Source: a virus
DNA length: 64,000 nt
Reading direction: 5' to 3' (one strand)
IMG/VR virus record: IMGVR_UViG_3300046779_001412
Location: 1 to 64,000 of that record
Shown here: positions 5,604 through 63,570 of the stretch, one piece after another
Position numbering within the stretch: the stretch's first letter is position 1
Layout: every line of letters begins with the position of its first letter
Notes under the pieces: model-generated
Told to the model about the DNA's origin: nothing
The model's database searches: none
Seen by the model: only the letters and a program-made list of their open reading frames with translations
Translations under genes and position numbers: made by a program

Positions 5604-6040
5604 ACTATAAATTTGCACGCATACAATTAGATCATACCAATTACACGCCCACTGTGTTCTGGGCGTATCTAGACAAAACAGACTACAACATTGCTGCCTG
5701 TGAAGAAATCTATAGGCAGTACTGTACCTACAAAAAATTTGCATCAGTGATGCCTTTGTTTCGCAGCAGATTTCACGATGTCATGGCTGATGTAATTGGT
5801 TACTGGGATCAAACTAACCTTGTGGCTTTTAGCCTGATACGTAGATTTGACGAAACTAATGCATTGTGTGATCAGTTTGCTTGGACCTATCATAATCCAG
5901 ATCTGCACCTAGGCATAGAAACTTTAAAAACCGAATGTGCCATATACAAGCAACGCGGGTTTGAATATCTTTACCTTGAGCAGGCACAACTTTACAAATC
6001 ACAACTCAACGGCTTTGAACTCTTGGGACCAATTACATGA
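5600..6040 (+). CDS. GNAT-fold protein resembling the arginyl-tRNA-protein transferase (ATE/Bpt) C-terminal domain
   Basis: LHLGIETLKTECAIYKQRGFEYLYL...YKSQ..GFE matches the ATE_C-type SLG....L.EI..A...G..YLYLGY....YK pattern; ATGA-coupled. Confidence 0.55.
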   Translation: MNYKFARIQLDHTNYTPTVFWAYLDKTDYNIAACEEIYRQYCTYKKFASVMPLFRSRFHDVMADVIGYWDQTNLVAFSLIRRFDETNALCDQFAWTYHNPDLHLGIETLKTECAIYKQRGFEYLYLEQAQLYKSQLNGFELLGPIT

Positions 6041-6372
6041 GCGACCTATATACAATCTGGGCTGACAAACAAGGTGACATCAGTGATCTAGACTGGGTGA
6101 CAAACATGCGCAGTTTTTTTGACCATCTTGTAGAAGAAAACAAGATGGAGAGCTATCGTATCACACGTTGCAAGATGGGATTTAGATCAATACCTGACAT
6201 GCCGGAGTGGATGATAATCATGGAATTCACTGGTATGGCACAGATGGATGAAGCCTTTCGTCGAGTAGCGCCGCTGGAAGGTGAACTAGAAGACAAACAC
6301 CGCAGCTTCAATCAATTTGTAGCAGGCAACATTCAACACGCACTGTTTCGTGATTGGCCTGATCAGTTATGA
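6037..6372 (+). CDS. DUF6614-like (dimeric alpha-beta barrel) protein
   Basis: YTIWAD...SD...HL.EE...ESYRITR.K.GF...PEW.I.MEF..MAQMD.AF; ATGA-coupled. Confidence 0.5.
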   Translation: MSDLYTIWADKQGDISDLDWVTNMRSFFDHLVEENKMESYRITRCKMGFRSIPDMPEWMIIMEFTGMAQMDEAFRRVAPLEGELEDKHRSFNQFVAGNIQHALFRDWPDQL

Positions 6373-7391
6373 CTCAAATAGTGTGTGTCACTGGCACTCA
6401 CAATGTAGGCATAACTTTTCTAGATTGGAGCCTACATTGGCTTAGTGGTCATAACAGCGTGTATCACTGGCAACATGGCTGGCAACCAATCACCACAAAT
6501 CCATTAACTGGTTTAAATGCACACGCACACTACAAAAATCATTTGAGTGGCATTGCTGCTACTCAATCCGCACTTACACAATTATATTCCGTTGATACCA
6601 CATGGCATAGTATCTATCCTGTGGGGCCTGCTGTGGACCAACGAGCTAGAGATCTTGGTTATACAGCAGATGTTGTTCATGACGACACTGCATGGCAACA
6701 CATAATTGATCTGTGTGATCAAGAGTATGCCGAGGTCTGGAACTATTGTGCGCAACAGAACTGTGAACGAGTGTTTGTAGCTACCACAGTGAACAATGCG
6801 GTATATCATGCACACACCTTGGACCGAGCACAGCACGCGGTGATGTTTGCTGACCAACCACAATCTGATACCTTTCTGCGCATGCATGAATTGTTTTTTG
6901 CGCAGAGTCTGGCCACTGTGTCAACTACATGGGATCGCAGAGAACTCTTGGCTTTGAACCTACAACTGCATAGAGCACGCCTTGGGCACGAGCATCTTGA
7001 CTTCACCAAGCCGCATCATTGGATCAATTGTCACGAACTCTGGTATCATGCTCATCAGCTAGTACCAGTACTCATGAATCAACTTGCAATCCCGTTGCAA
7101 TGGGATCGGTGGGATCATTGGCAAACTGTGTATCAGAATTGGCAACAGATTAATTATCGCTGCGTGAAATTTCAATATGAACTAGATCATATTGTGGAAG
7201 CCATAGTCAACAACTGGTCATACCCGTTGCTAGAACTTAGTTTCCTACAGGAAGTAATGATTCAACATGAACTGCTTTACAAACACGGGCTCAACATCAA
7301 GAACTGGCAACTTGAACGTTTTCCGGATAACACACAAAAGCTACATCAGCTGCTTGAGATCAATCATCACCAGTTAAGATCTACTACGTAG
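6369..7391 (+). CDS. Hypothetical protein (His/Trp-rich; possible sulfotransferase-like P-loop start)
   Basis: 340-aa ORF coupled to the upstream gene; N-terminal IVCVTGTHNVGITFL. Confidence 0.6.
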   Translation: MTQIVCVTGTHNVGITFLDWSLHWLSGHNSVYHWQHGWQPITTNPLTGLNAHAHYKNHLSGIAATQSALTQLYSVDTTWHSIYPVGPAVDQRARDLGYTADVVHDDTAWQHIIDLCDQEYAEVWNYCAQQNCERVFVATTVNNAVYHAHTLDRAQHAVMFADQPQSDTFLRMHELFFAQSLATVSTTWDRRELLALNLQLHRARLGHEHLDFTKPHHWINCHELWYHAHQLVPVLMNQLAIPLQWDRWDHWQTVYQNWQQINYRCVKFQYELDHIVEAIVNNWSYPLLELSFLQEVMIQHELLYKHGLNIKNWQLERFPDNTQKLHQLLEINHHQLRSTT

Positions 7392-7439
7392 ATCTATTGA
7401 TTCGCTTGCGCTCATCAATGTGTTCGAGCAGAGCGAGAA

Positions 7440-7765
7440 TTTAGTTATCATCTAGATTTTTTGGTCATACTTGCCCGTTACCGGGCAAGTAGTCATCATC
7501 TGAGTTCGAACGATCACTTGTATAAAGAGATTGTGTTTCCACACGGAGGCGGTTGCGCTGTACCTCCTACTCTAGCCTTGACTCGCAACGGAACGCAGGC
7601 GACCCCATACAAGCAAAGTCCCTTGCGCCGCGGTTGTATCTTGTTCACATAGCCGCGATCATTTAGCCTAAGTTAGCCTATTCTTTGACACCCAAGATCC
7701 GCTGGCAACGAGCCTTACCTCGGCTAGCTCAATGGGGCTAAGTCACAACACTTAGCACAGAGTCT
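7440..7765 (-). ncRNA. Candidate large structured non-coding RNA of unknown class
   Basis: Largest intergenic gap in the window; at least six stems, GNRA tetraloops on the minus strand (GTAA closing a 10-bp stem at 7468-7491; GAAA at 7532-7543), long-range pairing between 7607-7614 and 7516-7523. Confidence 0.6.
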
Positions 7766-8778
7766 AATTGTGGTTTTAACCGGGAATAACAAAAGTTTGC
7801 AAAAGCAGTGTGTTGTATGGGGCCTGGGTGTGATGCATCTGTGCCTAAATCAAGCCAGTGTTGACGTATTTGCCTGTTGATATCAATGCGAATTGGATGT
7901 TGATAGTAATGAAAGTGTGGTATTTGCCTAAGTGATGTTATATATGCGTCCAGGAAGTTTGCGTTGAAAATTAATAATCTAGCACCAATTTTGTCACAAA
8001 AATTGGCCACTGCTTTGATGCAGTGTAATGATTGATACAAAGTGGTATCGCTGGTCAAAGCACGCAGCGGCCAGCTGTGTTCTAAATCTGGGTCTTCAAC
8101 ATGGCTATGCATGTTTAGATGCAGCATCTTGCTGTGATTTATAATCCATTGGCGATAAGGCCCAGTAATACCCCAGACCACAGTGTCACGCCAACGAATA
8201 TCAGATCTAAGTATCTGATCAGCTTGCCAAGCGTTACTGGCGCCGAGTTCGGCTAATACTGAATACTGAATGTTCAGCAATTTGGCCAAGGCGTAGCTCC
8301 AGGTCTGCGCAGGGTCAACTCCAATGCCAGCTGTGATACTACAACCTGCGGTCCATAGCTGCGGAGCGGAAGTTCGACGTTGGTCAACTAAGGGTAATAG
8401 CTCCTCAGGACGATGAATGTTTTCCAAACGATTCAATACTTTGTGATTTACATGCCGCTGTATTAGATATTCTGTGATACCACGAATACTATCATATGGA
8501 TCCAATGCATTGATTTTTTTATTGTCGCTCCATTGATGATCGGGCGGCGGACAGTACTCAATTACATCTGACAGTGCTAATAACTCGCAAAACTTATCAA
8601 CGGCTAGATCGCCCAATGATGTGTACACTGTGACATCTTCATGATCAGTGCGAATGAACTCAGCCCAGTTGGCATCATGAATTAAAAAAGCCATGGGGTC
8701 ATTTTGTCTAGCCGCTGCTCTTAGATAGGCATTTACATCACCAACATAGGTTGTTAGAGTGCCTTTAATCATGCACAC
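7738..8778 (-). CDS. Hypothetical protein with SGNH/GDSL hydrolase-like C-terminal domain
   Basis: AGCSITAG (block I-like), GASN, DASHPG (DxxH); probable start ATG 8772. Confidence 0.55.
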   Translation of the reverse strand: MCMIKGTLTTYVGDVNAYLRAAARQNDPMAFLIHDANWAEFIRTDHEDVTVYTSLGDLAVDKFCELLALSDVIEYCPPPDHQWSDNKKINALDPYDSIRGITEYLIQRHVNHKVLNRLENIHRPEELLPLVDQRRTSAPQLWTAGCSITAGIGVDPAQTWSYALAKLLNIQYSVLAELGASNAWQADQILRSDIRWRDTVVWGITGPYRQWIINHSKMLHLNMHSHVEDPDLEHSWPLRALTSDTTLYQSLHCIKAVANFCDKIGARLLIFNANFLDAYITSLRQIPHFHYYQHPIRIDINRQIRQHWLDLGTDASHPGPIQHTAFANFCYSRLKPQLDSVLSVVT

Positions 8779-9284
8779 AATACTTTCACACTGTCTGCAT
8801 TTATCTCCCAGAACAGATCATAATCCATGATCATCCAGTGTCCGTTGAGTCCACTAGCATAGTTAAAATGCCTAGTAAACATCAAACTAGATGTATTGGG
8901 CTGTACCTGCACAGCCACAAATTGGCCCTTGCGATTGAACTTCATACATAGAATGTTGAAATCTTCTGCATCAGCAACCTCAATACACTGTTGAATCCAA
9001 GTGTCTAGAGTTTTACACGATCCTTGAAACAACTGATGAAATGGAAAGTCTTTGTAGCTCTTGCACTCACAGTTGAACCTAGGAAAACTTTCACCGGGTA
9101 TGATGTCGCCTTTGAAACTGCGGATCTGCCCTTCGTGTAATACCTGTTTACGATGACTATTAGCGCCGCCAATATAAGCACCTGAATGTGGCACTCGTAT
9201 AAATGTTTCTCCGTAGAGTGTAGTGAGATGTCGTGCAACAGTATTCTCCCAGGTATTGCCTTTGATTTTTTGCGGACTAGTCAT
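8769..9284 (-). CDS. Holliday junction resolvase (PD-(D/E)XK, Hjc-like)
   Basis: K.KG..WE, R.P.SGA, GDI, ECKSYK motifs; downstream of gp46/gp47. Confidence 0.8.
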   Translation of the reverse strand: MTSPQKIKGNTWENTVARHLTTLYGETFIRVPHSGAYIGGANSHRKQVLHEGQIRSFKGDIIPGESFPRFNCECKSYKDFPFHQLFQGSCKTLDTWIQQCIEVADAEDFNILCMKFNRKGQFVAVQVQPNTSSLMFTRHFNYASGLNGHWMIMDYDLFWEINADSVKVLCA

Positions 9285-9293
9285 GTGTTTTAG

Positions 9294-10331
9294 TTACCAT
9301 TCCTGCGCATATTCAGCAGTTACTTGATCGGCAGCACACTTGGTTTGGCATTCTTGCCACGCATAAGATTGAAATTTAGTAGACCAAAAAGGATCTGCCA
9401 GCACTGACATTAAATCACGCTTTTTTAGATCAAACTGATTGCCCAGCTGTTGCCATTCTTCGTTGTGTTCATAGCGATTTGCTACCCAACAACAGGGAAA
9501 TAATTGCCCCTGTGCGCTGATATACAGACCCTTGTTTCCAATGGCACACAATGGCTTTACACCATTCACTGTGGTGGTATTTTGATATTTTTCTAGATTA
9601 ATAGGCCATGCTGTACGAGCACGGTTTTGAAACGCATATACTTCACGTTCAAATCTGTGGCTTTGACTAATCAAAGCAGGCATAGGCTCAAGACTGTCCT
9701 TAGTGCCATAGTGAGCATATACACTGCCAAACTTAGTGCTCTTGGTCAGTTGGAATCTATCAAACCCAAGATCCAGCGCCTGATTTTTCATGTGCTGAAT
9801 ATACTTTTGATTAAATTTAAAAGCAATTGCAGCCCAGATCATCTGGCATCTACTATGTGCACGTAGAGTCTTTGCCCCTGAGATAATGCCGTCATAGTCA
9901 CTGTTCACACGATACTGATTATTGCTTTTGTTATCCCAACCGTCAATACTAAAATGCACACTGTCTGTATCACCAAGCTGCAGGGCCAAGCTCTTCCACC
10001 AGTATTCAGATTTGTGACTACCATTAGTAACAATCACGATCTCAATATCTGACTGGATGCTTTTGAAATAGGCAATCACTGGTATTAAATCATGCGCATA
10101 TATTGGATCACCGTCATCACCACAGAAAGTAATCTTACGCACATGCTGTTTTACAAAGTCAGGTTTGAAGTTACGTTCAAAAAAGTCAAAGTCTAATTCG
10201 GTGTTTACCAGACTGTGAGGAACTTCCTGTCTAGCACACCGAGGACAGCGCAGAGTACATTTGCTGGATATCTCAATATGCCAGTGCCATAGAGCCAGAC
10301 TGTTAGTCGCCTGCATAGGAAGTGAATCCAT
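9294..10331 (-). CDS. Radical SAM protein with C-terminal twitch/SPASM domain
   Basis: CTLRCPRC, CGDDGDP, TNG, FSIDG; C-terminal C-x7-YISAQG.LFPCC...C-x3-C. Confidence 0.85.
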   Translation of the reverse strand: MDSLPMQATNSLALWHWHIEISSKCTLRCPRCARQEVPHSLVNTELDFDFFERNFKPDFVKQHVRKITFCGDDGDPIYAHDLIPVIAYFKSIQSDIEIVIVTNGSHKSEYWWKSLALQLGDTDSVHFSIDGWDNKSNNQYRVNSDYDGIISGAKTLRAHSRCQMIWAAIAFKFNQKYIQHMKNQALDLGFDRFQLTKSTKFGSVYAHYGTKDSLEPMPALISQSHRFEREVYAFQNRARTAWPINLEKYQNTTTVNGVKPLCAIGNKGLYISAQGQLFPCCWVANRYEHNEEWQQLGNQFDLKKRDLMSVLADPFWSTKFQSYAWQECQTKCAADQVTAEYAQEW

Positions 10332-12054
10332 TTTCTTTAACCACTTTCATGATATTTTCCACACGTCCTGCTAGTTCATCACGGTGACTAACAAGCCATA
10401 TGCTTTTGTGACGTTCGCGTCCCATTTTCTTAAGAATGGCCAGAGCATTTTCAACACCCTGTGTGTCAAGGCCCGAGTCAATCATTTCATCTACAAACAG
10501 TAGATTCACCGGACGATATAAGCTTTCCCATACATCACGGAATGCCCAGCTCATGCTTAGAATCAATCGATTGCGTTCACCTCGACTGAGATTGTCAAAG
10601 TCAAGATCTCTACCAAGTTCGGTAATCTCTACCGACAGATCATTTTGAAACAGCACCTGATGCGGCAATCCAATGCGATCAAGATAGTATACTAGTCTAC
10701 TGTTCAAATAAGATAGATTTTGATCAATGATCTTTTTGCGTATAAACGAATCTTTGTTGGTTAGAAGTTTCAGCAAAAAGTCTTGATGGTCTTGTAGTTT
10801 GGTCAGTTCATTGAGATGATCGTAGGACACGTCTTGTAAAGCTTGACCACGCATGTCTTGTATCTGTTCGGTATAAGGATCAGTTTCACTGCTGCGATTT
10901 TGTAGATTAGTTTGCAGGGTTTCAAGACTGTTGCGATGATTCAAGGCCTGTTCTAGGTTGTCATAGAATACAGTTGGTGCAACACCAAGCTCGCCTAGGT
11001 CATCAAGTTCGTTTTGATGTTCACTTTTTTGTGTGTCATTGGTGAGCAGTTGCAGTGCTAGTTCCTGTAGTTCTTTTTGTTTTTTGTCTTTTACAGTGTC
11101 AAGACTGTTGTCGTGTATTTCGGTGCCACAGGCAAAACAACGATGCGCCTGCATCTGTTCAAGATCCTTTTGCAGTTGAGCACGTTGCTTATTGAGTTTT
11201 ACATTGTCTTGATCAATCTGTCGGATCCAGCGATTGTGTTCGTCAATCTGCTTTTTATTGGAATGATAAATTTCAAGATCACGATGCGCTTGGATTTCTG
11301 ATTCAATGTCAATGTGCTCCAGCGCACTAATAGCCTCACGCACTTTGTCGCAGTCTTCCTGTTGTTTTTTAATCCAAAGATCTCGACGTTTTTCTAAACT
11401 GGTGATCTGTTCTTCAATGCGTTTGTTTGCTTCTTGCACAGCACGAATACGCATTTCTTCTTGACCAATTTCTTCCTTGGTTCCACGATTCAGTTCGCGT
11501 ATGCGTTCGGCCCGCTCACTGAGCTGCGTGATTCCCAAGAGTTGTTCTATGATTTCTCGTTGATCATTGGCACGCAGATTCAAGAAGGGCTCTGTATAGG
11601 TATTCAAGGCCACAATGTGACGAAACATATTGTGACTCATACCCAGCAAGCGTTCTACGGCTTCTTGTGTTTCGCGTGAGTCGCCTTGTGCATCATCAGT
11701 AGCAAGTTTTTCTTCGTTGTTTACAAAGAATTTTAATACATTGGGACGACGTCCACGTTCAATACGATAGCCCTGACCATCTACTACAAAGTCCAGACTC
11801 ACAACCATTTGTTTGCCATTGGTCTTGTTGATAAGATTGTCTTTTTTGATATTGGTCAAGGCCATGCCAAACAGTGCAAAACTTAGAGCATTTATAATCG
11901 TGGTTTTGCCTGTGCCATTACGCGAACCGTCACCGCCAAGATCTAGATTCTCTCCCAGTACCAGAGTAAGGTCGCGACGATCAAAGTCCAGAGCCTGTGT
12001 GGCATTGCCTACACTCATAAAGTTTCGTACTGTGAGCTTATTGATTATGATCAT
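10303..12054 (-). CDS. gp46: Recombination endonuclease ATPase subunit (T4 gp46 / SbcC / Rad50)
   Basis: NFMS.GN, Walker A NGTGKT, coiled coil with CFAC zinc hook, signature LSRGE, Walker B LFVDE, VSH. Confidence 0.95.
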   Translation of the reverse strand: MIIINKLTVRNFMSVGNATQALDFDRRDLTLVLGENLDLGGDGSRNGTGKTTIINALSFALFGMALTNIKKDNLINKTNGKQMVVSLDFVVDGQGYRIERGRRPNVLKFFVNNEEKLATDDAQGDSRETQEAVERLLGMSHNMFRHIVALNTYTEPFLNLRANDQREIIEQLLGITQLSERAERIRELNRGTKEEIGQEEMRIRAVQEANKRIEEQITSLEKRRDLWIKKQQEDCDKVREAISALEHIDIESEIQAHRDLEIYHSNKKQIDEHNRWIRQIDQDNVKLNKQRAQLQKDLEQMQAHRCFACGTEIHDNSLDTVKDKKQKELQELALQLLTNDTQKSEHQNELDDLGELGVAPTVFYDNLEQALNHRNSLETLQTNLQNRSSETDPYTEQIQDMRGQALQDVSYDHLNELTKLQDHQDFLLKLLTNKDSFIRKKIIDQNLSYLNSRLVYYLDRIGLPHQVLFQNDLSVEITELGRDLDFDNLSRGERNRLILSMSWAFRDVWESLYRPVNLLFVDEMIDSGLDTQGVENALAILKKMGRERHKSIWLVSHRDELAGRVENIMKVVKENGFTSYAGD

Positions 12055-41154: not shown

Positions 41155-41756
41155 ACAGTGCACAGTACAAAATTGATGGTTTTCTAAAGATTTTTGATCC
41201 CCATACTCAAGAAGTATTTTTGGATAAGCATAATGCTATTCATTACGAAAACATTTCTGTGGGCATGGCGCAGACTCTTGCGGACAGAAACACTGGTTAT
41301 ATCTATCAAATGGCATTTGGCAATGGTGGTAGTTCAGTTGATCCTACTGGTGTGATTACCTATCTCCCACCAAACACCGTGGGGCAAAACGCCAGCTTGT
41401 ATAACCAAACGTACCAAAAAATTGTGGATGATGCTAGTGCTGACAACACTGATCCTGTGAACAATCGCATGACGGTGTTGCATACGCCTGGTAAATTTTA
41501 TACAGATATTTTGGTCACATGCTTGTTAGACTATGGTGAACCCGCTGGACAGCAGGCATTTGACAACTCCACTAATTTCAGTGGAGAATTCGTGTTTGAT
41601 GAATTAGGACTGAAAACATGGAATGGTAGTGCTACAGACCTGCGTTTGATTACGCATGTGATATTCCATCCCGTACAGAAAAGTTTAAATCGTCAGATAC
41701 AAATTGATTACACGCTGAGGATACAGACTCTAACAAACCTCAGTAGCAACGCATAA
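41151..41756 (+). CDS. Virion structural protein (baseplate/fibre-associated)
   Basis: NAIH.EN, MAFGNGG, LDYGEP.GQ, FDELGL, THVIFHPVQKSLNR.I.I.YT. Confidence 0.7.
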   Translation: MNSAQYKIDGFLKIFDPHTQEVFLDKHNAIHYENISVGMAQTLADRNTGYIYQMAFGNGGSSVDPTGVITYLPPNTVGQNASLYNQTYQKIVDDASADNTDPVNNRMTVLHTPGKFYTDILVTCLLDYGEPAGQQAFDNSTNFSGEFVFDELGLKTWNGSATDLRLITHVIFHPVQKSLNRQIQIDYTLRIQTLTNLSSNA

Positions 41757-61967: not shown

Positions 61968-63570
61968 GTTTGATGTTTTTTATCTAGACCAACCAACTGG
62001 ATTGTTCGCTCACGAAAAACCTGCGCGGAGCATAGAGCATGCTCGGGATCAATCTCGTACAAGATATCTTTGGATTGTTGACTACTTATCTGACTATTCT
62101 AAGTTTGACTTTCTTTGGGAACCAGTGCCTTGGGAAGCTGCTCAATGTCATGCTTGGCCAAGTCAGTGGCAAGTTGAAGGTGGTACCTTCCTGGTTCCCA
62201 AGATAGGATTCACAGATGTAAATCGTGAGCATGATATAGTACCAAAACACACATCTGTTTTCAAGGTCTTGATAGATCATCTAGATAACTCAACCCTAAA
62301 ACTTGATGCAGTGCGTACAGTACGATTCTTTGAAAGTTACTTGGCCACATTAAGACGCATTGCTAATTCTGCACAAGAAGAATATCTATGGATATGCAGT
62401 AGTGTATGCGATTACTCTAACTTTGATTTTACCTGGCATCCTGATCCTTGGCAAACACAAATGTTGCATGTGTTTGCCAGCGAGGATCAAAAGTTTGGCG
62501 ATACTTTTTACATGCATGTGCCAAGTGCAAGGCAAAATTTAGCTAAGGTCAAGCTGCTTGATTGGTATGCTTTAAACTTTGTTAACGAGCAACCTGTCCC
62601 ACGCCGACACATGCCGGTGAATTGGCATCAAAAGGATAGTCATGTCAGCGCAGTGCTATCGCATACTTGGAGTGCACCCTTGGAAATTTTTACGTGTACC
62701 AATGTTGATCGTAAAATGCCTGTGGTAAGTTTATGGCAGGATAACGCTAGGACCATAGTGCCTCTTAGCGCAGGCGCCAGTGCGGTAATTGTGCCTAAGA
62801 TAGCAGCTTCTATGATTCGCTCACAACTGTACGACTATCCACACGTAGATAAAACACATGCAAATACATTTGAGGATCGTGAGCAAGACGTCGTGTTTAT
62901 TAGCAATGGTGAGCCCATGGCTGAGGACAATTGGCAAAAATTGCAATCAATATGTCCACGTGCTGTGCGTAGCGATGGCATAACTGGACGTGAAGCTGCG
63001 TACAAAGCAGCCGCACAACTTAGCACTACCCCTTGGTTCTTTGCAGTGTTTGCCAAGACCGAAGTGTTGCCAGAATTTAACTTTGATTTTCAACCAGATC
63101 GTATGCAGCAGCCCAAGCACTACATATTTCATAGTCGCAATCCTCTTAATGGTCTTGAATATGGTGCTATGAATATAAACTTGTATAATCGTCAGTTGGT
63201 ATTGGACACCGTGCCTGGACTTGACTTTACGTTGAGTGCTGCTCACACTGTGGTACCTATCTGTGCAAGTATATCACGTTTCAATACTGATCCATGGATC
63301 ACATGGCGTAGTGCTTTTAGAGAAACCATGAAGCTGCGAAGAGAAGTAGATCAAGGAGCAGATGTTGAAATCAGTCATAGGCTACATGTCTGGTGCACAC
63401 AAGCTCAAGGCGAGAATGCCCAACACTGTATACAAGGTGCGAATGATGGTGTTGAGTATTATGAAGCTGTGAACGGTGATTTAGAAATGCTTAAACTGAG
63501 TTTTGATTGGCAATGGTGTCAAGACTACTACTTTGACAAGTATGGTTGCCGTCCTTGGTTAAAACTTTGA
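61966..63570 (+). CDS. Multi-domain glycosyltransferase-like protein
   Basis: Repeated SRT.YLWI...DY..FDF.W.P.PW units; C-terminal domain homologous to 46362..47288 (FISNGEP, AYKAAA, NPLNGLEYG, TWRSAFRE..KL). Confidence 0.6.
   Translation: MFDVFYLDQPTGLFAHEKPARSIEHARDQSRTRYLWIVDYLSDYSKFDFLWEPVPWEAAQCHAWPSQWQVEGGTFLVPKIGFTDVNREHDIVPKHTSVFKVLIDHLDNSTLKLDAVRTVRFFESYLATLRRIANSAQEEYLWICSSVCDYSNFDFTWHPDPWQTQMLHVFASEDQKFGDTFYMHVPSARQNLAKVKLLDWYALNFVNEQPVPRRHMPVNWHQKDSHVSAVLSHTWSAPLEIFTCTNVDRKMPVVSLWQDNARTIVPLSAGASAVIVPKIAASMIRSQLYDYPHVDKTHANTFEDREQDVVFISNGEPMAEDNWQKLQSICPRAVRSDGITGREAAYKAAAQLSTTPWFFAVFAKTEVLPEFNFDFQPDRMQQPKHYIFHSRNPLNGLEYGAMNINLYNRQLVLDTVPGLDFTLSAAHTVVPICASISRFNTDPWITWRSAFRETMKLRREVDQGADVEISHRLHVWCTQAQGENAQHCIQGANDGVEYYEAVNGDLEMLKLSFDWQWCQDYYFDKYGCRPWLKL

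Follow-up and report, generated by a model that had tools for sequence, protein, structure and literature searches.

A family of pseudoknotted non-coding RNAs with twin identical words in giant T4-like phages

Results

A conserved non-coding RNA gene between two convergent genes

The stretch of DNA analysed here (hereafter the window) comprises 64,000 nucleotides (nt), positions 1 to 64,000 of the IMG/VR virus record IMGVR_UViG_3300046779_001412, a phage fragment of 136 kb with 43% G+C that is rated 39% complete. Positions 7372-7768 of its minus strand are the gene for a non-coding RNA of ~390 nt with at least 13 helices and two pseudoknots. The RNA occupies the gap between two convergent genes, a plus-strand open reading frame (ORF) of 340 amino acids (aa) at 6369-7391 and a minus-strand ORF of 346 aa at 7738-8778, which end at 7391 and 7738, respectively. 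Its 5' end overlaps the final ~27 nt of the 346-aa ORF, and its 3' hairpin overlaps the stop of the 340-aa ORF. An initial annotation, made from the letters of the window, had placed a structured RNA of ~330 nt here; the RNA is there, but its conserved block is longer (7376-7765, ~390 nt). This RNA is a member of a large family carried by giant T4-like phages, for which we use the working name twin-word family, and we regard its structure and family membership as close to certain.

Five IMG/VR contigs encode a homologue that shares 79% identity with the 346-aa protein, and over 7765-7376 (390 nt) their identity to the window is 98.5%. In a comparison with one relative by 100-nt bins, the RNA was 97-100% identical and its flanks only 51-92%; bins over 7401-7800 gave 0.92-1.00, against 0.51-0.89 elsewhere. 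Among 80 loci brought in through protein alignment of distant homologues of the 346-aa protein, nhmmer placed the element directly downstream of the homologous gene in 54 (29 distinct) at E ≤ 1e-8, and in loci found through such distant homologues the RNA retained 67-75% nt identity while the protein was only 33-41% identical. The most conserved 19-mer, used as a degenerate pattern, matched at least 120 IMG/VR stretches. From all IMG/VR loci we extracted 124 distinct full-length candidate members (among the matches listed), 92 of which align by nhmmer over nearly the whole of a 415-column profile; 59 of these have the 5' domain of the window RNA and 33 have another 5' domain.

Secondary structure and covariation

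We drew by hand a model of 79 base pairs in 15 helices and counted pairs on a plain MAFFT alignment, not fitted to structure, of the 59 window-type sequences. Of the resulting 4546 cells, 92.0% were paired, compared with 79.4% in 500 shuffles, none of which reached the observed value, and sliding the partner by 1-3 columns lowered pairing to 37-48.5%. Changes on both sides of the pair (double changes) were present at 55 of the 79 pairs, the covariation score was 0.362 against 0.149 after shuffling and at most 0.086 after sliding, and RNAalifold showed double changes in 33 of the 54 pairs that it predicted. We also used an alignment-free permutation test of duplex energy, in which each member's own strand pair is set against the partners of other members. 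None of 2000 permutations reached the observed energy in any of 16 helix segments; for the H5 segment the first run had given 1842/2000 through an energy artefact, and a re-run with capped energies gave 0/2000. The elements of the model, read 5' to 3' along the RNA, are as follows.

7737-7756, minus: H1, hairpin GCUAAGU/ACUUAGC; double changes at 6 of 7 pairs, permutation 0/2000
7691-7736, minus: H2, CCCA (7733-7736) with UGGG (7691-7694), enclosing H3; 100% paired, double changes at 3 of 4 pairs
7709-7722, minus: H3, hairpin CGAG/CUCG; double changes at 7 of 7 pairs in the majority subtype
7629-7657, minus: H5, hairpin CGCGG/CCGCG with a large conserved loop; 99.6% paired, double changes at 3 of 4 pairs, permutation 0/2000
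7595-7626, minus: H6, stem GCA.GG.GAC/GUC.CC.UGC; 95.5-97.7% paired, double changes at 5 of 9 pairs
7607-7614, minus: loop of H6, GCTTGTAT, the 5' strand of pseudoknot PK2; complementary to ATACAAGT at 7516-7523
7584-7589 with 7552-7557, minus: pseudoknot PK1, GUUGCG with CGCAAC in the loop of H7; 100% paired, double changes at 2 of 6 pairs and 4 invariant
7545-7567, minus: H7, hairpin GGAGGU/GCCUCC; 100% paired
7570-7573 with 7526-7529, minus: H8, AGAG with CUCU; 93.2% paired, double changes at 3 of 4 pairs
7533-7544, minus: H9, hairpin GUGU-GGAA-ACAC with a GNRA loop; permutation 0/2000 (n=60)
7516-7523, minus: 3' strand of PK2, AUACAAGU, pairing with GCUUGUAU at 7607-7614; 88.6% paired, double changes at 7 of 8 pairs, permutation z −17 (0/2000)
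7495-7501, minus: box 1, AGAUGAU; in a loop closed by a short stem in most relatives
7468-7491, minus: H10, perfect 10-bp hairpin with a GUAA loop, between the boxes; 92.2% paired, permutation 0/2000
7447-7453, minus: box 2, AGAUGAU; 48 nt after box 1, no closing stem detected
7396-7419, minus: H11, hairpin AUUGA-UGA-GC-GCAA-GC-GAA-UCAAU, that is, an outer stem, tandem G-A flanks and a GNRA (GCAA) loop; double changes at 8 of 8 pairs, permutation z −24
7377-7395, minus: H12, 3' terminal hairpin; double changes at 6 of 7 pairs

H1 is only 69.5% paired because MAFFT shifts one subtype. H12 is followed in many relatives by a terminator-like U run; the U tract of the window is weak and was missed by a simple terminator scan. 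The stems that had been listed for the minus strand at 7737-7756, 7629-7657, 7595-7626, 7545-7567 and 7468-7491 are present in this model, as is the 8-bp pseudoknot 7607-7614/7516-7523, and double changes support both pseudoknots. A small GNRA hairpin proposed beside them is likewise present, drawn here as GTGT-GGAA-ACAC at 7533-7544. At 7711-7725 there is a hairpin, but by eye the AGCC/GGCT pairing suggested for it is not kept in the aligned relatives and we draw CGAG/CTCG at 7709-7722, a weak correction given that the window subtype comprises only about six sequences. The second pseudoknot (PK1), the AGAG/CUCU helix, the G-A-flanked GCAA hairpin and the 3' terminal hairpin go beyond the initial annotation.

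The most conserved core of the RNA is 7545-7589. This core, GUUCCGUUG ... GGUAC.G..CAACCGCCUC, contains the hallmark of the family, a GGUAC.G..CAACCGCCUC hairpin whose loop is paired with an upstream GUUG.. strand in 100% of the 59 sequences. Four of the six PK1 pairs and most loop letters are invariant in the same set. Such a core might be the catalytic centre of a ribozyme with boxes 1 and 2 as two reaction sites (for cleavage, ligation or exchange), and both the extreme conservation of the pseudoknotted core and the size and complexity of the RNA, which are within the range of large ribozymes, are compatible with this. However, the RNA matches no ribozyme family in Rfam, no internal guide co-varies with the boxes, and there is no exon continuity, the surrounding genes being convergent. 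We therefore consider a ribozyme very improbable.

Single-sequence folding energies do not tell the strands apart (z −2.2 for minus, −3.5 for plus). G-U pairs are abundant, for example UG in 48-59 of the 59 sequences at five pairs, and because these would be C-A mismatches on the opposite strand, we assign the RNA to the minus strand. Covariation and G-U pairs together bear out the earlier proposal of a structured non-coding RNA with GNRA loops on that strand; the ribozyme-like and replication-origin roles suggested along with it are guesses.

A further question is whether the region owes its signal to a small ORF, either 7461..7652 (plus strand, 63 aa) or another. Stop-free stretches of 24-106 aa do occur in the region, mostly antisense (75 of 92 members). 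Nevertheless, no conserved ORF was found, since from member to member the longest open stretches share neither their frame nor their span. A three-base periodicity in variability is not convincing (0.86-0.93 versus 0.99-1.01 bits by phase), and base-pair covariation accounts for the conservation. A protein-coding origin of the signal thus has practically no probability in our estimate.

One 3' module with three types of 5' domain

The whole window had no Rfam match at gathering thresholds, and a permissive search (E ≤ 10) with the window RNA returned nothing but sR11 (16.7 bits, E 1.3) and, on the opposite strand, RNase MRP (7.9 bits, E 5.6). RF01718 (Polynucleobacter-1, gathering score 37 bits) had no match at E ≤ 10 in this region or in the whole 136-kb record. 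The sister RNAs at loci L024, L043, L064 and L040, in contrast, match RF01718 at 121, 113, 106 and 85 bits over all 141 positions and, ~100 nt past that domain, run into a 3' module of the window type. The shared module consists of the pseudoknot core, the twin words, a hairpin, the G-A hairpin and the terminal hairpin; H9 is missing in the RF01718-type RNAs. The 3' halves of the two types match by nhmmer at E 1e-9 to 1e-15 with the window as single query and at 1e-48 to 1e-70 with a profile. A covariance model of the module built from both types (R1; 167 positions, 22 pairs) gives the window a score of 131 bits. In one subtype of a larger RNA, RF01718 makes up the 5' third; the window RNA belongs to a sister subtype that escapes detection by Rfam. 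The initial description of the RNA as unrecognised thus holds for the window RNA, which has no Rfam family at E ≤ 10, but not for its family, which is partly catalogued through the RF01718 domain of its sisters.

A third 5'-domain type with the same 3' module occurs in cultured phages. R1 matches Salmonella phage Munch at two places (29 and 26 bits) and Escherichia phage EJP2 at one (27 bits), and in the alignments the core and the pseudoknot strands can be seen, together with a G+C-rich hairpin and twin words. Each of the three matches lies in a gap of 564-740 nt that carries no annotation, and each has the strand of its neighbouring genes. Each gap opens, by eye, with a TATAAT-like motif, TGTGATATAAT in two of the three and CCTATAAT in the third (L221 1048-1090, L222 995-1020, L223 950-975), which suggests that the RNA has its own promoter in these phages. 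By gp46 the nearest cultured relatives of the source record are giant phages, namely PA5oct (50% identity), Phosso and Atu_ph07, followed by Munch, 7t3 and EJP2. R1 had no match at E ≤ 0.01 in PA5oct, Atu_ph07 or Phosso, which does not by itself show absence. The family seems to be present, with several copies per genome, in culturable Salmonella and E. coli phages, which makes it accessible to bench experiments.

BLAST of the RNA against 50,697 GenBank phage records gave no match, two further queries from the relative L047 gave chance-level matches only (E 0.4-10), and tblastn of the 346-aa neighbour gave none; it took a covariance model to reach the cultured relatives. In a collection of bacterial genomes a 16-base pattern was found in 120 stretches, of which nhmmer accepts three (L316, L273 and L318) and perhaps a fourth, weak one (L292); by our own estimate the remaining matches are expected by chance in 596 billion bases. 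In L273, L316 and L318 the RNA is on contigs binned into bacterial metagenome-assembled genomes (MAGs), for example a 4.4-kb contig of a Methylococcaceae MAG, and these are probably phage contigs binned with bacteria. The family is common in giant T4-like phages of lakes. No second copy was found in the source record, where nhmmer matches only 7375-7766, although at 39% completeness further copies are possible. An R1 match at 41491-41590 (15.8 bits, E 0.098) was taken as chance.

Two words that change together

Boxes 1 and 2 (7495-7501 and 7447-7453), the direct repeat AGATGAT that had already been noted, flank H10, and to this repeat we add the direct co-variation of its two copies. The word has the consensus RGAURAW, and its two 7-nt copies are identical in 88 of the 92 aligned members. 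Counting changes on a tree built from the rest of the RNA, we found that position 1 (A or G, 46 members each) is the same in both boxes in 92 of 92 members through at least 14 changes, position 5 (G in 64, A in 28) in 92 of 92 through at least 10, and position 7 in 88 of 92 through at least 12; for the word as a whole the minimum is 32 changes. Between the boxes, the word columns have a mutual information of 0.86-0.96, with a next-best value of at most 0.28, and no cis partner was found, in that no other alignment column co-varies with the word columns. Gene conversion is an unlikely cause of this identity because letters just outside the word differ consistently between the boxes (ACUC versus AUCU before it); position 8, just after the word, is identical between boxes in only 21 of 92 members.

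Distant members have twin words of other sequence, spaced 48-62 nt apart. The word is CGUCAA in Munch and EJP2 and ACGAAAU, GAAUGAU, ACAGAAU, AGGUAAU, AUGAAGAG or AUAGCAG in divergent IMG/VR members. An exact twin 7-mer is present at the expected place in 25 of the 32 extra members outside the alignment and, by our own count, in 113 of all 124. In the window, RF01718 and Munch types alike, each box is part of a duplicated ~25-nt unit (UGAC, 8-12 nt, AYYN, word). The short stem that closes box 1 passes the permutation test (0/2000) and box 2 lacks such a stem; other spacer and flank pairings around the boxes are not significant, being reached by 1262-1895 of 2000 permutations. A 10-mer, TCTAGATGAT (box 2 with its prefix, in minus-strand sense), recurs at 62276-62285, probably by chance, as ~0.26 copies are expected in the record.

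Several readings of the words were tried and rejected. A Box1-Box2 helix from RNAalifold (UCRGAU with AUCU.GA) and a contact of three pairs that joins box 2 to the conserved GCUAAC stretch are not family features, since by eye Munch and EJP2 lack the complementarity and since neither accounts for the identity of the words. Distant members carry unrelated words (CGUCAA, ACGAAAU, AUAGCAG), which led us to set aside a K-turn or box C/D element, a tandem sheared G-A duplex between the boxes, URA stop codons, CsrA-type GGA sites, a −10-like GAUAAU and a Shine-Dalgarno-like reading. An anticodon loop as partner was rejected on general tRNA rules, as the complement would place C at position 37. The words stay identical while changing freely and no internal position co-varies with them, and we therefore propose that they are read by sequence from outside. 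Selection would then act on the identity of the words rather than on one given sequence, and the reader would be outside the RNA. To our knowledge, no other structured RNA has two words that remained identical through at least 32 changes with no internal pairing partner.

One candidate for such a reader is a protein. The two units (UGAC, spacer, word) might be twin sites for a dimeric or tandem-domain RNA-binding protein of phage or host, the RNA being a subunit of a ribonucleoprotein or a sponge and the words tracking the specificity of the protein. The duplication of the ~25-nt unit around each box in all three types is in line with this, and there is a precedent in the boxB sites of nutL and nutR in lambdoid phages, which co-vary with their N protein. 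However, the word changed at least 32 times in 92 close relatives, including single purine swaps, and distant members have unrelated words. The specificity of a protein is unlikely to shift so fast, and no RNA-binding protein family was recognised among the neighbours. We consider a protein platform unlikely.

Alternatively, the words might be processing sites at which a sequence-specific endoribonuclease cuts twice and releases the ~50-nt hairpin unit as a small RNA, a circle, or a decoy or antitoxin-like unit directed against a host RNase. Identical words 48-62 nt apart around a very stable hairpin would suit such an enzyme, type III antitoxin RNAs are cut once per repeat, and a phage with a 1.5-repeat mimic is known. 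On the other hand, only 7-11 nt are repeated here rather than a whole 34-45-nt unit, and neither ToxN-like nor other toxins are found beside the RNA in the window, Munch or EJP2. Contigs from RNA libraries moreover cross both boxes unbroken (X15, 7443-7756; X17, 7367-7583), though contigs cannot show ends. Processing at the words is in our view distinctly improbable.

Genomic neighbourhood and expression

Besides the 340-aa and 346-aa ORFs, for which Pfam, PHROGs, NCBIfam and PADLOC gave no match, the following genes surround the RNA in the window.

8769-9284, minus, upstream of the RNA: PDDEXK_15 endonuclease
9294-10331, minus, upstream of the RNA: radical SAM protein
10303-12054, minus, upstream of the RNA: SbcC/gp46-like protein
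6037-6372, plus, upstream of the 340-aa ORF: DUF6614 gene

Residues 17-140 of the radical SAM protein, whose gene separates gp46 from the PDDEXK gene, match pVip, a viperin model of PADLOC (E 1.2e-8), and the protein also has weak Radical_SAM/SPASM Pfam matches. The 346-aa protein has more than 300 metagenome homologues, none assigned to a family; its consensus motifs GCS..HG and D..H may be akin to those of SGNH/GDSL hydrolases, for which we take it only as a candidate. Both flanking ORFs terminate within helices of the RNA: the TAG of the 346-aa ORF is in the 3' arm of H1 (7737-7743), and the stop of ORF 6369-7391 is in the terminal hairpin (7377-7395), on the opposite strand.

Neighbourhood statistics were taken from 112 distinct loci gathered by the RNA pattern alone, with no neighbouring gene as bait (among the matches listed). 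In IMG/VR relatives the RNA has a fixed place, downstream of gp47/gp46 and the radical SAM gene, where it faces a convergent DUF6614/baseplate-hub block, a layout that the window matches for its gp46, radical SAM and DUF6614 genes. The gene directly upstream of the RNA encodes a 142-aa SegE-type GIY-YIG endonuclease in 72 of the 112 loci; in the clade of the window it encodes the 346-aa protein. No toxin or defence family was recognised beside the RNA with Pfam and PADLOC. Where the homing-type endonuclease gene directly precedes the RNA (among loci L092-L210), the conserved RNA gene may be the target that the enzyme cleaves in rival phages.

Such a role would be one of several at the level of DNA or in cis, in which the element would be the DNA target of a homing-type endonuclease, a 3' UTR (untranslated region) stabiliser or terminator of the upstream operon, or a replication-origin transcript. 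The position of the RNA at the convergence point of transcription, with a hairpin at its end, and the SegE-like gene directly upstream in 72 of 112 loci point in this direction, and homing could help to explain the near-identity of the element between diverged phages. However, at least 13 helices, two pseudoknots and strand-specific G-U pairs exceed what a terminator or a DNA site needs. The upstream gene also varies by clade (346-aa protein, GIY-YIG endonuclease, and others in Munch and EJP2), and the genes flanking the RNA in Munch and EJP2 are co-directional with it. We thus give explanations of this kind little credit, slightly less even than a ribozyme.

In relatives, a TTAGGCAG-type motif precedes the RNA at a short distance. 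It is found 10-25 nt before the first conserved letters, as TTTAGATAGGCAGC in window-type RNAs and TTAGGCAGTTAA in RF01718-type RNAs (for example in L047, L194 and L024), and could represent either a promoter of the phage or the true 5' leader.

The stretch is present in DNA runs of several freshwater studies. We also considered four RNA-labelled runs: two metatranscriptomes, one run for which the RNA label is guessed, and one metatranscriptome with matches of only 90-95%, which probably come from a relative. In each of the four there are short contigs that do not extend beyond the RNA (7443-7756, 7497-7772, 7367-7583 and 7519-7693), one of them ending at 7367, near H12; stretches of 6800-8400 that had no cover in these runs are uninformative. 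These contigs are a hint of expression, but a weak one, as they may be DNA.

Discussion

A trans-acting scaffold as the proposed mechanism

We propose that the RNA would be transcribed from the minus strand up to its 3' hairpin and would act in trans as a rigid pseudoknotted scaffold. In the window it would probably be made by read-through from the 346-aa gene, as the upstream motif that is conserved in relatives is missing there. The scaffold would show one word of 6-7 nt twice, with a stable hairpin between the copies, one of which would lie in a hairpin loop and the other in a single-stranded linker, and a single external partner would read both copies by sequence. Most likely this partner would be a nucleic acid bearing two copies of the complement, or else a site with two-fold symmetry, and the RNA might then be described as a bivalent and re-programmable recognition or bridging RNA. 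The trans-acting twin-recognition step is a guess, possible but short of probable, and for the explanation as a whole (an RNA gene, its family and a twin-word scaffold acting in trans) we see the chances as even.

Several observations weigh against this explanation. The upstream motif is missing in the window (7766-7830), where the RNA abuts the 346-aa gene, and because of this and the weak 3' U tract the ends of the transcript are uncertain there. The shuffles used in the covariation analysis ignore phylogeny, so that their significance is somewhat overstated, although the slid controls keep it. The Munch and EJP2 matches are weak (26-29 bits) and were accepted on their visible hallmarks. The signal for expression comes from assembled contigs, which can contain DNA or stop where a conserved block ends. 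No partner of the words was found: members show no clear enrichment for the complement of their own word within the ~509-nt extract (7-mer in 5 of 92, against 1.7 expected), there is no excess of complements to shorter sub-words within the same extracts, and in the fetched loci, which for most members cover about 5-14 kb of surrounding sequence, word complements are not enriched either (53 occurrences against a mean of 36 for other words).

A more specific form of the trans-acting scaffold is that the RNA is a natural re-programmable bivalent guide, in which both words pair with two copies of one target and the knotted core brings in an enzyme of the phage, which might be one of the adjoining nucleases. 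The targets may be, for example, inverted-repeat half-sites or two molecules of phage or host RNA or DNA. We hold this form to be quite unlikely. If true, it would represent a new class of RNA-guided machinery in giant phages, and the co-variation of the words would be the footprint of retargeting. The identity of the two words with no internal partner points more generally to an external reader, and if the words are guides, then the RNA would be a new programmable recognition system. RNAs that are large, elaborately folded and strongly covarying tend to have a basic role, and few of them lack an assigned function.

Comparison with known RNAs

The RNA is not one of several well-known kinds. 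ARAGORN found 0 tRNA or tmRNA genes in the window, RNase MRP appeared only at 7.9 bits (E=5.6) on the wrong strand, and group I and II introns had no Rfam match at E ≤ 10, with convergent flanking genes and no downstream minus-strand exon; the initial annotation had likewise not recognised it as tRNA, tmRNA, RNase P or a group I/II intron. The similarity to the box C/D sRNA sR11 (RF01150; 16.7 bits, E=1.3, below the gathering score of 39 bits) stems from AGAUGAUGA, where the Munch and EJP2 relatives have CGUCAA, with no GA. ToxI-like type III antitoxin RNAs consist of tandem whole units of 34-45 nt followed by a gene for a ToxN-family toxin. Here only 7-11 nt are repeated, and no toxin or defence family is recognised by Pfam or PADLOC in the neighbourhoods in the window, Munch and EJP2.

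Two other systems share a principle with the twin words. In the bypass of T4 gene 60, matched take-off and landing codons are ~50 nt apart with a hairpin after the first, and their identity matters rather than their sequence. The twin short words resemble this arrangement in their spacing and in the hairpin after the first; bypass, however, needs an ORF translated into the first word, whereas here there is no conserved ORF and the fold is supported by covariation. Bridge and seek RNAs of IS110-family recombinases have two loops with different guides and an adjoining DEDD recombinase gene. As bivalent guides, they have in common with the RNA described here only a structured scaffold with two short re-programmable segments, since here the words are identical and no recombinase gene was recognised among the neighbours.

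GOLLD and ROOL, as presented in the available part of their description (10.1101/2024.12.08.627333), are likewise large, many-helix, pseudoknotted non-coding RNAs of phages and prophages found by comparative genomics. The window RNA has no sequence or structure match to either, and RNAs of the twin-word family are smaller (390-600 nt). We know of no twin-word feature in GOLLD or ROOL.

The closest relation is to Polynucleobacter-1 (RF01718), as the sister RNAs that bear this domain occupy the same genomic place as the window RNA, from which they differ in their 5' domain. In the literature searched, the name Polynucleobacter-1 appeared only in a table row of a 2010 survey by Weinberg et al. 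(PMC2864571, in the part of it available), and no description of the full RNA, its phage origin or its twin words was found. That row gives 'y' for RNA, 'y' for cis-regulatory and '?' for switch, with Burkholderiales and fresh water or estuary as taxa. The motif is thus marked there as a probable bacterial cis-regulator (PMC2864571, same row), whereas here it is part of a giant-phage gene with its own terminal hairpin. RF01718 models about one third of the full RNA and nothing of the twin-word module. The catalogue thus covers just one third of a single subtype, listed as a supposed cis-regulator of bacteria, and the window adds an uncatalogued subtype of a family that has been publicly known solely as an orphan fragment.

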